UHGV virus genome: UHGV-0112704
Strand: one strand, 5' to 3'
Origin: a virus
DNA: 38,905 bases
Below, in pieces: positions 21,577-27,627 of this stretch. The notes beneath the pieces were generated by a model. It was not told the origin of the DNA, did not search any database, and saw only the letters and a program-made list of their open reading frames with translations. A program made the translations under genes and the position numbers. Numbering within the stretch: position 1 is the stretch's first letter; every line of letters begins with the position of its first letter.

Positions 21577-22368
21577 TCAATTACCCAATGGCTTATGTAG
21601 TTTAAATGGGTTAAGTGATTCTTCATTTTTCAGGCTTATCTTTAAATTCACAGCAATCAGTGAATGATCGTCAGTTGGTCCAGCGCGCTGTATCCGCTTA
21701 AAAAGATTGGTTGAAAAGTTAGTAGCATTCTTCAATGTATTGGGAGAAAAACGCGGGCGGCGTTCCCAGAAGTGATGGGCTCCATCGGACATCAGAAAAA
21801 GAGAAACAACACCGTCATGGTCCATCAAATCTGACAGGGGTAACGAAATATGCTGAAATTTTATTGGCAGGACTTTAGAAATAGCTGCAGTAAGCATGTT
21901 CTTTCCTGGTAAGTCTTCCAATTCCCTTTTCGTATATAACCCATCGTCGAGCAACTCTTGATGCTGTGAGTGATCTTTCGTTAGTAGTTTTAATTTGTTA
22001 TCAATTTTTACATACACCCGAGTATCGCCTACATGGATTACATTAAGTAACTCACCATGTACAACACAGTAGGATAATGTTGTTGCGGCCTTGCGCTTCT
22101 CTGAATCGAACTGAGATAGTTCAGATATTTTGTCTTTTGCACCACTAAGTATCGCATCAGGATCAGAACTGGCTTTCAGTTTATGAGTTGCGACATAGTC
22201 TACTGCAGCTTGCGCTGCTTCTTTAGCACCAGCATAAGACCCGACACCATCAGCAATAGCAAAAATGAAGCCATCATCACATTGTTGCGGGAGTAGTAAC
22301 GCATCTTGGTTTTCACGACCATGATCTTTGGGGCATGAAAATGCACCACAGCTCAACAACTCAATCAT
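21577..22368 (-). CDS. PP2C-family (PPM) Ser/Thr protein phosphatase
   Basis: 263 aa; PPM motifs RENQDA, FAIADGVGSYAGA, HVGDTRVY, LMSDGAHH, TDDHS; start overlaps the kinase stop (ATGA); about 39% GC. Confidence 0.8.
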   Translation of the reverse strand: MIELLSCGAFSCPKDHGRENQDALLLPQQCDDGFIFAIADGVGSYAGAKEAAQAAVDYVATHKLKASSDPDAILSGAKDKISELSQFDSEKRKAATTLSYCVVHGELLNVIHVGDTRVYVKIDNKLKLLTKDHSQHQELLDDGLYTKRELEDLPGKNMLTAAISKVLPIKFQHISLPLSDLMDHDGVVSLFLMSDGAHHFWERRPRFSPNTLKNATNFSTNLFKRIQRAGPTDDHSLIAVNLKISLKNEESLNPFKLHKPLGN

Positions 22369-23147
22369 TTGCCTCTCCTTGCTGCAACAATATCATCAAG
22401 AATGTCTATCATCTCAGTGACAGAATCGTACCTTGAACGAGGCGTAAATGCCGCTGATTTATCGATTAATGTCGTTATACCGTCAATATGAGATAGATTC
22501 ATTTCACTAGTAATAACACCTAGCGCGTAAATATCTGATTTCTGTGTATATACTCCGCGTTTAGCCTCGTCAGACATGTACTTAGCAGTGCCAATACCCA
22601 TTTTTTTGTTTTGAAGTACACCTGACAAAAAATCAGATTGGGCTTTCGAATCCATACTTTTGATTAGGCCGAAATCGGAAATTTTGTAACAGCCTCCTTC
22701 AAACTTGAGGATATTCTCAGGTTTCAGATCCCTGTGAAGCAACCCAGCGTCATGGATATACTTAACGCCTTCAAACACCATCTTCAGGGCTAACAGCTTT
22801 TCATCATCAGAAAGAACGCCCGCTTTTAGTTCGCTTCTTAGGTCTGTTTCTGCCAACTCCATCACAAACCAAGGGTTTTCTATGCTTAAATGATGTATGC
22901 AAATTCTTACAACATGATCATGATTGCACTTGGCTTGGTAGTCGACTTCACGCTTAAACCGACGCTTCCAGTCATCTACACTAAAATATTCATTTAATAA
23001 CGCAGGATTAACTGAAAGAACTTTCCTTGCATACTCACCACAAAGATGGCTATCGGTGTTATATACCTCAACCTTTTCCACACGACCAAAAGCACCAAAA
23101 CCTAGATCTCTCAATGGTTTTATAAGGTAATTACCCCTGGGTTCCAT
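22365..23147 (-). CDS. Hanks-type (eukaryotic-like) Ser/Thr protein kinase, minimal catalytic domain
   Basis: 260 aa; glycine loop LGFGAFGRV; Lys in YARKV; catalytic loop HRDLKPENI; DFG in ISDFGL; subdomain IX-like SDIYALG. About 39% GC against about 51% in the flanking structural genes. Confidence 0.85.
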   Translation of the reverse strand: MEPRGNYLIKPLRDLGFGAFGRVEKVEVYNTDSHLCGEYARKVLSVNPALLNEYFSVDDWKRRFKREVDYQAKCNHDHVVRICIHHLSIENPWFVMELAETDLRSELKAGVLSDDEKLLALKMVFEGVKYIHDAGLLHRDLKPENILKFEGGCYKISDFGLIKSMDSKAQSDFLSGVLQNKKMGIGTAKYMSDEAKRGVYTQKSDIYALGVITSEMNLSHIDGITTLIDKSAAFTPRSRYDSVTEMIDILDDIVAARRGK

Positions 23148-23280
23148 AGCTTACTCACATAAAATTCTCATGAGCAAAATCTACACCCAAAAGAAAAACC
23201 ACACCATATCAATAGGTTTAATTTTCCAAAGAAATCTATCTACACCCTGCAGCAGCTTAAATACACCTCAAAAAAGAAAA

Positions 23281-23310
23281 CCCGCTCATCGGCGGGTTAT
23301 TAATTTTTAT
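23281..23310 (-). terminator. intrinsic terminator (hairpin with U-tracts on both strands)
   Basis: AACCCGC-TCATCG-GCGGGTT at 23281-23300, preceded by AAAAAAGAA (U-rich on the minus transcript) and followed by ATTAATTTTT. Confidence 0.5.
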
Positions 23311-23533
23311 CTATCGCTGCGGGTGTAACTTCGCGAGCATAGCTGAATTCAAGCAATCCCCGCGCAACTTTGCAACCGGAATCGATCAGCTTTTTTATCA
23401 AATACATCACACATTGGTAAGTACAGCATGGCTTCTGCCATCTGCAACCAGACATCAATTCGACTTTCGCAGGTACGTAGGCACCATTCCGGGTGACGAG
23501 TATTCAGTTCTCTTGCCGCCCATCTTCACGAAG

Positions 23534-23561
23534 CCCAGCCATGTGCTGGGTTTTCTTTTTT
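23534..23561 (+). terminator. intrinsic terminator, plus strand
   Basis: CCCAGC-CATGT-GCTGGG followed by TTTTCTTTTTT. No annotated plus-strand gene upstream, which suggests a small transcript. Confidence 0.55.
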
Positions 23562-23640
23562 GAAGCGCACTAATCACCGTAGCCACAGATATTCAGCAAT
23601 GAGTTGGTTGGGTCTGGTTCTTGGTGGTAATGCGCTTTAA

Positions 23641-23664
23641 AAAAGCCAGCGGCGATGCTGGCAA
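23641..23664 (-). terminator. intrinsic terminator, minus strand
   Basis: On the minus transcript GCCAGC-AUCGCC-GCUGGC followed by UUUUUU (plus-strand AAAAAA at 23641-23646). Confidence 0.45.
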
Positions 23665-23875
23665 GATGAGGGTAGTGCGTTGAGCTTTCGCTCTTATGGT
23701 CCTGGTAGGTATTTGAGATAGTGGTGTCTGGTGGCTAATTCCAGATTACGCCTAACATCACGTCCTCTGACTTTACAATTCACCACAACGGAAAGAGCAC
23801 TCACGTCTCGCGTGTCGGCACGAATACCCACCCAGAGAGTCGAACTCTGAAAATGCCCTTACCTGTTGTGCAGAT

Positions 23876-23935
23876 ATAAAAAAGCCCGGAGCCATTATGC
23901 AGATACTAACTATTGTCTGCGAACGGGGCCGGGCT
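23876..23935 (-). terminator. tR'-like compound terminator about 230 nt downstream of the pR'-like promoter
   Basis: On the minus transcript AGCCCGG...CCGGGCU (7 bp) enclosing an inner GCAGA/UCUGC stem, followed by UUUUUUAUAU. Confidence 0.35.
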
Positions 23936-24116
23936 ATTGAATGACAACGCCATCATCCAGATGGCGGCCTGATTACTCAGGTCTTGGAGAACCTCTCAGC
24001 TCTCTACGGTTGGAGTACCAGACGATGCGCCGAAGATACCAACTAGGCGGTTCAGTGGTGAGAGCCGCCTCTTTTGCCTCACCGCCAACGAAGTCAGTAA
24101 CCCATCGTTAGAATCG

Positions 24117-24145
24117 AGATTAAACAAAAATCGCCACTTTGTAAA
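24117..24145 (-). promoter_or_regulatory. pR'-like late promoter just downstream of the Q-like gene
   Basis: On the minus strand TTTACA, 17 bp spacer, TAATCT, located 45-70 nt after the Q-like stop codon. Confidence 0.35.
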
Positions 24146-24187
24146 GTGTAGTTTTCTAGATAAATCCTATTTCATAGAAAACATTCA

Positions 24188-25048
24188 CTATCGCGTGACT
24201 TTGTTCAACATCTGGTTTGCGTACTCTTCCTGCTTGATGCACTCACCTACCAGACTTTCGAAAAAATCCTTGTAAGACCTGCGCCACGTGGTTTCAGGTA
24301 TATCCATCACCGTTACGCAGATGTATTTACGGACGCTATCAGGTAGCAATCTGGCATAACCACGCCCATTGCAGCGCGTACAGGTTTTATATGCAGGAAC
24401 GCCGCGCTGTAGAATAGTTTTCTCTTTGTCTAATACTGTTCCTTTGCCATTGCACTGGCATGCGTTGGTCAGAGCACCCTTCCCTTTGCATTTGTGGCAA
24501 AGCACCTTAACCATCTCTCTTTTTTCGCTAAGGTGTGGCTGTCCGATATGCTTCATCGTCATTACTTCAGCTTCGACAAACTTATTTCCATGGCAGCAGT
24601 CGCACGTTCTGGTGCTGGCCGCACTCCGGGAGTAATCAGCAAAGGCGAAAGTTGCGAGAACTTGCATTACCTTTGGCTTAACATCACTCTCAAGCTTGCG
24701 TAAGGCAGCAACCTTATCGCAGTGCTCAATTGCATATTTTGTCAGCAAATCAATCGCTCGCTCGCGATCGTAATCACTGATATCCATCTTTCCTAGGAAT
24801 GCACTGAACCCGAGAGCAGCACGGCTCTGTGTCATTCCGATCGCCGCCATAATGTCAGTGCCGGTTAATGAGTCAGATGCTGTCGCGCGTGGAGCGTCGC
24901 TAATCATCGTTGACTTCGCGAAGTGGTATTTCACTGTGTTTTCAAGGTTCATAGCGCTTCTCCAGCATAAGTTTTCACGTAATTCTTCAGTATCCGGTAG
25001 TCCGTTAGCACAGAGCCGGGAAAGTGGTATAAGCGCAATCGTTGCCAA
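24188..25048 (-). CDS. late-gene antiterminator Q-like protein with Cys-rich zinc-finger repeats
   Basis: 286 aa ORF immediately upstream of the promoter/terminator leader and the lysis genes; four CxxC-type clusters (CDCCHGNK, CHKCKGKG, CQCNGKG, CTRCNGRG); directly downstream of NinG as in lambdoid phages. Confidence 0.55.
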   Translation of the reverse strand: MATIALIPLSRLCANGLPDTEELRENLCWRSAMNLENTVKYHFAKSTMISDAPRATASDSLTGTDIMAAIGMTQSRAALGFSAFLGKMDISDYDRERAIDLLTKYAIEHCDKVAALRKLESDVKPKVMQVLATFAFADYSRSAASTRTCDCCHGNKFVEAEVMTMKHIGQPHLSEKREMVKVLCHKCKGKGALTNACQCNGKGTVLDKEKTILQRGVPAYKTCTRCNGRGYARLLPDSVRKYICVTVMDIPETTWRRSYKDFFESLVGECIKQEEYANQMLNKVTR

Positions 25049-27136: not shown

Positions 27137-27246
27137 AATGGCCTCCATTGCATGTACTGTGTTTTTATACAGTATACCTATGCGCGGAAATGATCAACGT
27201 TTTAAGAGCACAAATTGTCAATTTTCTGTCAGTAGTAAAAAAAGAA

Positions 27247-27264
27247 AACCCGCCGTAGCGGGTT
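27247..27264 (-). terminator. hairpin terminator upstream of the DinI-like gene
   Basis: AACCCGC-CGTA-GCGGGTT, with a U-rich tract on the minus transcript (plus-strand AAAAAAAGAAA at 27237-27247). Confidence 0.4.
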
Positions 27265-27627
27265 GAATTAGCAGTGTTATATTAAGCGGCAATTTCTTTC
27301 TGCCGGCACAATCCCGAGAGATTCGCCCTCTGTATCGCATCATCAATGAGCACCTGTATGACCATGAGGCAAAGCGTTATCCAACTTGCATTCATCTTTT
27401 TCAATCAGCAAAGGAGTGGTTAGTGCTGTGAGTGGGCTTTGTTCACTTCATGGTAGATAAATCAGCTATGGATAAGTGATAAGAGGTGAAATCAATCCGA
27501 ATTAACAACCTGAAGCACATTAATCGGAACACAGATATTAAAATCCTAAAGTCTAGTAACAAATAGCCGATATGAGATATTGCTTATCAGTTTAAAAATA
27601 ATCTATTGAAAAAATGGGGGGGAGGCG

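Follow-up and report, generated by a model that had tools for sequence, protein, structure and literature searches.

A probable lambdoid late-operon control region with a predicted 6S-like leader RNA in virus genome UHGV-0112704

The late promoter pR' of phage lambda is constitutive, and lambda 6S RNA is abundant in lysogens (PMC7547250; bioRxiv 10.1101/2024.10.31.621285). This RNA binds Hfq, is processed to ~121 nt and has partners detected by RNA interaction by ligation and sequencing (RIL-seq) (bioRxiv 10.1101/2024.10.31.621285), and its function is still unknown (PMC7547250; bioRxiv 10.1101/2024.10.31.621285). Phages 21, phi80, 82 and P22 make short RNAs comparable to 6S RNA, and StxS, the pR'-tR' RNA of Stx phages, acts as a regulator (PMC7547250). 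Here we examine positions 23148-24187 of virus genome UHGV-0112704 (the window being the whole stretch of 38,905 nt that was analysed), a kilobase between a Q antiterminator gene and a Ser/Thr kinase gene that very probably serves, on the minus strand, to control the late operon of a temperate lambdoid phage. The preliminary description of this DNA had taken the kilobase for a Q-dependent, multi-terminator leader running from pR' to tR'; direct homology to lambda supports that view, which was essentially right, and the region is a further example of the well-known lambdoid late control region.

Late promoter, leader and terminators

The anatomy of the region, its homologies and the conservation of its structures can be observed directly. 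The gene upstream, suspected before to be Q-like, encodes a member of the Q-lambda family that shows 36% identity with lambda Q in a full-length comparison, carries a 47-aa insertion and matches PDB entries 7UBM and 4MO1. The mechanical list of open reading frames (ORFs) opens this gene at a TTG at 25048 (286 aa); homology with lambda Q and with phage SI5 gives an ATG at 24952 (254 aa). The late promoter lies 43-71 nt past the Q stop, bearing out a promoter-like element noticed earlier 45-70 nt after it, and its hexamers align one-for-one with those of lambda pR' (TTGACT-17-TAAATT), the spacing of 17 nt and the distance from the Q stop being the same as in the lambda late region (44552-44805). 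The likeness continues into the transcript: that of lambda pR' begins with the same AACGATGGGTTA, window position 24109 aligning with lambda 44587, and AACGAT is identical to lambda positions +1 to +6. The pause function of AACGAT is established in lambda, and by analogy we regard the window copy as a putative pause-inducing element. Lambda Q binds in the spacer between the pR' hexamers. The corresponding spacer in the window, AAGTGGCGATTTTTGTT, is unrelated to that of lambda, is kept in SI5 and ES18, and is presumed to be the Q-binding element; the promoter as a whole is near-identical in SI5 (a Salmonella phage, grouped here with SI8), in ES18 and in one E. coli prophage, all of which have the same type of Q.

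Downstream of the promoter the leader aligns with lambda in two segments, with 76% identity to lambda 44587-44715 (window 24109-23984) and 86% identity to 44733-44805 (window 23924-23852). The predicted leader RNA has a fold energy of -85.1 kcal/mol (z -2.2) and, at ~231 nt, is longer than lambda 6S RNA (194 nt) because it holds an insert of ~50 nt, with two small hairpins at 23981-23948, that is also present in other leaders; the orf-64 ATG of lambda is missing. It would end at tR', which has the compound architecture of its lambda counterpart (-24.2 kcal/mol, z -3.9), is 86% identical to it and ~90% similar to the tR' regions of Stx phages, and lies ~231 nt from the predicted start, where a compound terminator had been placed ~230 nt downstream of the promoter. 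As in lambda, the leader RNA is predicted to be made constitutively and to end at tR' when Q is absent, and an earlier suggestion of one or two small transcripts is reasonable, lambda 6S RNA being a real and abundant transcript. The leader would stand beside StxS, IsrK and the short RNAs of phages 21, 82, phi80 and P22, which are leader RNAs under antitermination control; like StxS, it is predicted to be a short constitutive late-promoter RNA that is ended at tR' as a by-product of Q control, although StxS is 74 nt long and is reported to have no sequence in common with lambda 6S RNA.

We propose a model for late transcription in which promoter activity, pausing, loading of Q and read-through follow the lambda precedent. 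Sigma70 RNA polymerase would start constitutively at pR', with +1 near 24109, and would pause within a few nucleotides as sigma binds again, this time to the -10-like AACGAT. The Q-lambda-family protein encoded by the adjoining upstream gene would bind its site in the promoter DNA and load onto the paused polymerase. Without Q, transcription would stop at tR', releasing the ~231-nt leader homologous to lambda 6S RNA. With Q, the polymerase would pass tR' and three more terminators (23662-23639, 23298-23270 and 21433-21412), and the kinase/PP2C genes, the lysis genes and the morphogenesis genes would then be transcribed.

All four terminators of the region were recovered by the terminator scan and the fold energies at the places given for them before, and 22900-24500 holds 7 terminator-like sites against 1.4 +/- 1.2 in dinucleotide shuffles. 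Besides tR', the two further minus-strand terminators ahead of the kinase are found at 23662-23645 with T6 and at 23298-23279 with a T-run. The former of these takes the same aligned position as the annotated late terminator tQ of HK620 with a different stem sequence, which argues for function, and is nearly identical in SI5. The conserved block beyond it is 96% identical in SI5, 87% in HK620 and 76% in ES18, and the identity of 96% to SI5 extends over 23509-23715; here the homology to these P22-like phages ends at 23509, well before their holin gene. The strong plus-strand terminator that had been seen to have no plus-strand gene was confirmed (-14.7 kcal/mol, z -2.6), and the same antisense-oriented terminator is kept between late terminator and holin gene in HK620 (L004 1292-1318, where it is absent from the annotation), SI5 (L002 4025-4049) and ES18. 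No plus-strand promoter was found upstream of it in the window, HK620 or SI5, and an antisense promoter feeding it was rejected on this ground. This terminator may insulate against antisense transcription, or may end an antisense RNA whose start has been lost here.

Closer to tR', the conserved island GTGCTCTTTCCGTTGTGGTGAAT contains TGCTCTTT, which is similar to the rrn boxA, and the presence of a GTGCTCTTTCCGTTGTG island downstream of the leader is a further point shared with lambda. Among 97 related leaders, 37 have the island, with a left flank of at least six different forms and a right flank of three; this suggests an element with a function, perhaps a site for NusB/NusE, or else a boundary of recombination. 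SI5 differs from the window here in having another first terminator and a tRNA-like gene in the slot equivalent to 23716-23981, where the window has the lambda-type tR' and other sequence instead; ARAGORN calls this SI5 gene (L002 4211-4283) as an unannotated tRNA-Gln(CTG)-like gene in the late leader.

Neither strand of 23148-24187 has an ORF of at least 60 codons, as reported before, and the limits of the gap coincide exactly with the kinase start (23147) and the Q stop (24188) in a minus-strand series of late genes that runs NinG, Q, gap, Ser/Thr kinase, PP2C phosphatase, holin, lysozyme. It is the longest such stretch in the window, the runner-up being 479 bp (27149-27627); since random shuffles give even longer gaps, it is notable only against the coding density of the window itself and not against chance. 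Its earlier description as unusual in a phage holds only against average phage coding density, as the Q-to-holin gap measures 676 bp in lambda, 705 bp in SI5 and 1021 bp in HK620, and a gene-free kilobase at this site is normal for the lambdoid group given that the HK620 gap contains an annotated pR', qut and tQ. Coverage of at least 80% of the region is reached by no phage record and by no complete E. coli genome; IMG/VR holds one identical locus and one at 98.7% identity.

The scan for RNA families and tRNAs that the preliminary description had called for yielded neither: ARAGORN finds no tRNA gene in the window, and the Rfam covariance models give nothing at gathering threshold over the whole window, by which the known prophage small RNA (sRNA) families (AsxR, AgvB, STnc100, IsrK and others) were rejected. 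A lax Rfam scan (E up to 10) likewise has no tRNA match and returns only AsxR (17.1 bits, threshold 63) and Trp_leader (23 bits, threshold 41), both of which are terminator look-alikes. The AsxR match concerns tR' (23879-23958, minus strand), whose weak likeness to the conserved 3' portion of AsxR (17 bits against a gathering score of 63) hints that AsxR-type sRNA terminators and tR' may share ancestry; AsxR and AgvB (RF02703, RF02702) also lie downstream of pR' in lambdoid prophages, but the score is far under the threshold of 63 bits, orientation and position are different and AgvB has no match. A hairpin at 23833-23849 (minus strand), CAGAG-TTCGACT-CTCTG, resembles a tRNA T-arm, with no tRNA called there by ARAGORN or Rfam; in eight other leaders a variant with compensatory outer pairs (GTAGAG...CTCTAC) occupies the same place.

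A conserved structured core in the leader

The central part of the leader forms a structured core, which was evaluated on an alignment of 48 distinct sequences and 30 base pairs. Standard pairs are formed in 93.5% of the cells, against 26-49% when the 3' partners are slid, and changes on both sides are seen in 18 of the 30 pairs. Compensatory cells number 192 against 64 +/- 6 in shuffles, with none of 500 shuffles reaching the observed value, kinship among the 48 sequences inflating these shuffle statistics. The window sequence itself makes all 30 consensus pairs or their G-U equivalents, bar one position in stem A. Stem E is invariant and was partly fixed by the search patterns, and in stem B just two pairs covary.

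Two independent sequence anchors each retrieve at least 120 viral contigs with the core, behind very different promoters. Among the proteins encoded upstream are members of the Q-lambda family and DUF1133/PF06530-like ones, which makes at least two Q families unrelated to each other; several unrelated promoter/qut types precede the core, and two of the contigs are GC-rich. A terminator usually lies within tens to a couple of hundred nucleotides after the core, the counts being lower bounds since the finder misses long compound terminators such as that of lambda. Directly upstream of some of these leaders (L112 1778-2401; L045, L097, L140, L157, L178) the Q position is taken by a family of ~205-aa proteins with no Pfam match or a sub-threshold one to DUF1133; these are probably divergent Q21-like antiterminators.

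The core persists whichever of the unrelated Q families and promoter types precedes it, GC-rich phages included, and this pattern would imply a function beyond that of a spacer between pR' and tR'. We consider the chances evenly balanced that it belongs to a structured RNA family, widespread but not yet classified, that has such a function and that corresponds to the conserved core of lambda 6S RNA. The family fold would combine the near-invariant CUGAGAGGU loop with four helices that covary, of which two interleave and may form an H-type pseudoknot. The core has no match in Rfam, even at E up to 10, and no description of it was found in the literature searched, which is not proof of novelty. 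The core is not needed for the action of Q itself, since leaders of phages with functional Q systems (L014, the DUF1133 donor discussed below and ES18) are short and lack it.

The second Q module and the kinase/PP2C genes

The region is not one single leader, as it had first been described: at ~23509-23517 the leader is fused to the relic of a second late-control module. Homology to SI5 stops at 23509 and homology to an E. coli prophage starts at 23517, a clean junction beyond which 23277-23517 has 97% nt identity to the 3' end of the prophage gene for WP_487320628 and the 72 bp downstream, taking in a promoter-like element and a terminator. The gene remnant at the junction has an in-frame stop directly upstream and is 100% identical at the amino acid level to residues 138-192 of the 192-aa DUF1133 protein of the prophage (tblastn E 3e-38). 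A full-length DUF1133/PF06530 gene (~190 aa) was rejected, as these residues are all that is present after the stop. Because the donor protein matches PF06530 and, weakly, the solved Q21 structure, we take the remnant to be the tail of a second, unrelated antiterminator gene. A degraded protein-coding gene across the region had been named beforehand as an observation that would speak against a leader; the remnant is such a gene over 168 nt (23349-23516), but it covers only 16% of the region. The 22-codon plus-strand ORF at 23430-23498, rightly called unconvincing, is spurious and lies antisense inside it.

The promoter-like element has a -10 that overlaps the stop codon of the remnant and is followed by the -10-like TATGCT. 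The same arrangement is kept in a Klebsiella phage with a DUF1133-type Q and aligns with TTGCAT-17-TAAGAT then AACGATGGG of SfV, and TATGCTCGG also comes after the promoters of other DUF1133-like Q genes; by these likenesses the element is the putative late promoter of a lost DUF1133-type Q. Its leader would be ~70 nt long, and its terminator, third of the blocks that separate pR' from the kinase, is a hairpin listed by the scan in both orientations, hence on the plus strand as well. As judged by homology, this third minus-strand terminator belongs to an orphan unit of promoter, leader and terminator that has lost its Q. The module differs from its relatives in the E. coli prophage and Klebsiella phages in that its gene is cut to the last 55 codons and in having no cognate Q in this phage. 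Its nucleotide identity of 97% suggests recent recombination, and the junction is carried by only two near-identical IMG/VR contigs.

In conservation the ~80-nt block ahead of the kinase equals or exceeds the coding sequence. Its candidate promoter, the extended -10 TGATATGGT, is conserved in four of six homologues; the block holds TTGATATGGT, likewise read as the extended -10 candidate, and GGTGTAGATT. A structured 5' untranslated region for the kinase was rejected, the RNAalifold covariation term being positive (penalising) and compensatory changes few. Homology to other kinase/PP2C modules begins at 23225-23226, whatever lies upstream, in four IMG/VR contigs, each of which has a different terminator just upstream, and ends near 21634; a terminator at 21433-21412 follows the module. 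Such modules stand directly after Q genes in four other IMG/VR contigs, in Cronobacter phage phiES15 and in a Buttiauxella metagenome-assembled genome, the Q genes belonging to PF03589, PF06530 and PF06323 where the upstream gene was examined, and in phage Flotzy the module comes after the lysis genes. A scan of genome contigs with the kinase returned one distant Buttiauxella metagenome-assembled genome only. The kinase scores against the PD-T4-6, Stk2 and mad6 defence models (PADLOC). The window PP2C is 15-18 codons longer at its 3' end (21577-21633) than its homologues in L013 and L014.

From its sequence context the pair looks like a typical mobile moron, of the kind reportedly described by Juhala et al. 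in 2000, at the slot where Stx phages carry toxin genes. Like the stx genes, it stands between late leader and lysis genes, flanked by terminators and with its own upstream block; its cargo is a Ser/Thr kinase and a PP2C phosphatase, not a toxin, and its own promoter is only a candidate (extended -10). The boundary of the moron and the relic of the second Q module became visible because homology was used. We read the whole as a mosaic whose first part, the 680 bp nearest Q from 24187 to ~23509, is a lambda/P22-type Q-to-holin leader, whose second part, from ~23517 to 23277, is the recombination relic of another phage's late module, and whose third part, from 23226 to 23148, belongs to the moron; lambda, by comparison, leads from its leader into the S gene.

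Table 1. Features of the late-control region and its flanks (window positions)
Feature	Position	Strand	Details
Q antiterminator gene, Q-lambda family, 254 aa	24188..24952	minus	Pfam PF03589, E 8e-44
Late promoter pR'	24117..24145	minus	-35 TTTACA 24145-24140; 17-nt spacer; -10 TAATCT 24122-24117
AACGAT, putative -10-like sigma70-dependent pause element	24104..24109	minus	at predicted +1 = 24109
Predicted 6S-like leader RNA, ~231 nt	23878..24109	minus	homology to lambda 6S RNA and tR'
Structured leader core	23987..24086	minus	covariation in 48 distinct homologues
Core stem A	24086-24078 with 24062-24054	minus	
Core stem B	24070-24065 with 24050-24045	minus	interleaves with stem A: H-type pseudoknot or alternative hairpins
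Core stem E	24043-24039 with 24013-24009	minus	encloses hairpin C
Core hairpin C	24031-24021	minus	
Core hairpin D	24004-23987	minus	near-invariant loop CUGAGAGGU
tR' compound intrinsic terminator	23878..23935	minus	outer stem around inner hairpin (23935-23883), then U6 (23883-23878)
Conserved island GTGCTCTTTCCGTTGTGGTGAAT, 23 nt	23778..23800	minus	common to lambda and HK620
Second intrinsic terminator	23639..23662	minus	hairpin 23662-23645 and T6; -11.6 kcal/mol, z -3.2
Conserved block, ~135 nt	23509..23644	minus	precedes holin gene in P22-like phages; here cut at junction
Terminator opposing late transcription	23530..23561	plus	hairpin 23530-23554 and T-run to 23561, plus strand only
DUF1133/PF06530 (Q21-like) gene remnant	23349..23516	minus	last 55 codons and stop; N-terminal 137 codons missing
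Orphan late-promoter-like element	23336..23375	minus	-35 TTGCAA 23375-23370; 17-nt spacer; -10 TTGAAT 23352-23347; TATGCT 23341-23336
Terminator of orphan module	23270..23298	minus	-11.1 kcal/mol, z -2.9; homologous to annotated terminator after SfV Q
Conserved ~80-nt block upstream of kinase	23148..23226	minus	candidate extended -10 TGATATGGT (23211-23203) and ribosome-binding region
Ser/Thr kinase gene	22365-23147	minus	
PP2C phosphatase gene	21577-22368	minus	

Alternative readings and significance

Several observations weigh against a lambda-like late control region of the kind modelled above. The spacer of the promoter differs from that of lambda, and pR' matches the consensus at 8 of 12 positions, with a weak -10 that matches at three of six, because of which a simple consensus promoter scan did not call it. 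No canonical two-hexamer sigma70 promoter for the moron was found by scan, and the role of the plus-strand terminator is unexplained by the model. Finally, the second and third terminators may matter or may simply be inherited.

An alternative for the leader is that it is more than a by-product of antitermination and that the core at 24086-23987 makes the 6S-like RNA functional. It could then act in cis, by affecting termination, antitermination or processing, or in trans in lysogens, through binding to proteins or through base-pairing. We give this alternative even odds. It fits the strong covariation of the core, both interleaved stems included, its occurrence after unrelated Q families and promoter/qut types and in GC-rich phages too, and the terminator that usually follows it. 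The Hfq binding, the cutting to ~121 nt and the RIL-seq partners of lambda 6S RNA (bioRxiv 10.1101/2024.10.31.621285) point the same way, and StxS shows that a pR'-tR' RNA can regulate (PMC7547250). Against this, lambda 6S RNA is without known function after 50 years, the phages named above have working Q systems with short leaders and no core, the search patterns contributed to the invariance of stem E, and shared ancestry inflates the shuffle statistics. For the plus-strand terminator, we regard it as rather unlikely that it is the 3' end of an antisense sRNA, similar to the convergent AsxR/AgvB pairs downstream of pR' in enterohaemorrhagic E. coli prophages. It does converge on the minus-strand terminator at 23662-23639, is conserved in three phages, and lies at a moron site where convergent sRNAs are documented (PMC4104026); yet the scans of window, HK620 and SI5 gave no plus-strand promoter to start such an RNA, the plus-strand DNA upstream is replaced in the window by the DUF1133 remnant, AgvB has no match, and the AsxR match falls on tR' and not on this terminator.

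The orphan module (23375-23270) could also be a sensor for a foreign DUF1133-type Q: supplied by a phage that resides in the same cell or superinfects it, this Q would load at the module and let transcription run on into the kinase/PP2C and lysis genes. The module has kept its terminator, its promoter-like element and the -10-like TATGCT intact, and the downstream kinase resembles PD-T4-6 defence kinases, but we hold this to be improbable: the identity to the E. coli prophage, 97% in nucleotides and 100% in protein, points to a recent recombination scar and not to a selected element, the junction occurs in only two near-identical contigs, and the orphan promoter matches just 8 of 12 consensus positions. 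It is scarcely credible that the kilobase arose throughout by decay, be it of coding sequence or of a tRNA island like those that follow Q in Stx phages and SI5. The truncated gene of 168 nt, the tRNA-like gene in the equivalent slot of SI5 and the T-loop-like hairpin at 23849-23833 would suit such decay, but neither ARAGORN nor Rfam at E up to 10 gives a tRNA or another credible match, the 55-codon remnant is all that tblastn recovers when queried with the DUF1133 and phiES15 Q proteins, and the remainder aligns with the non-coding leaders of lambda, HK620, SI5 and ES18, the ATG of lambda orf-64 not being conserved.

With the late control region as the preferred reading, the kilobase can be labelled confidently in annotation as pR', qut, 6S-like leader, tR', tQ-like terminator, truncated Q21-like gene with orphan promoter and terminator, and moron promoter region, where it might otherwise be left blank or filled with spurious small ORFs. 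It is also a clean, datable case of mosaic evolution, in which a lambda/P22-type Q module meets its new surroundings within another Q gene, with a mobile kinase/phosphatase cargo downstream. We know of no answer to the question of what lambda 6S RNA does, which has been open since 1971. The region itself is of modest interest, and it is the conserved fold of the leader that bears on this old question: a fold found in more than 100 phages, whatever their type of Q, singles out particular stems and loops for mutation, by which the function of lambda 6S RNA can be tested directly.

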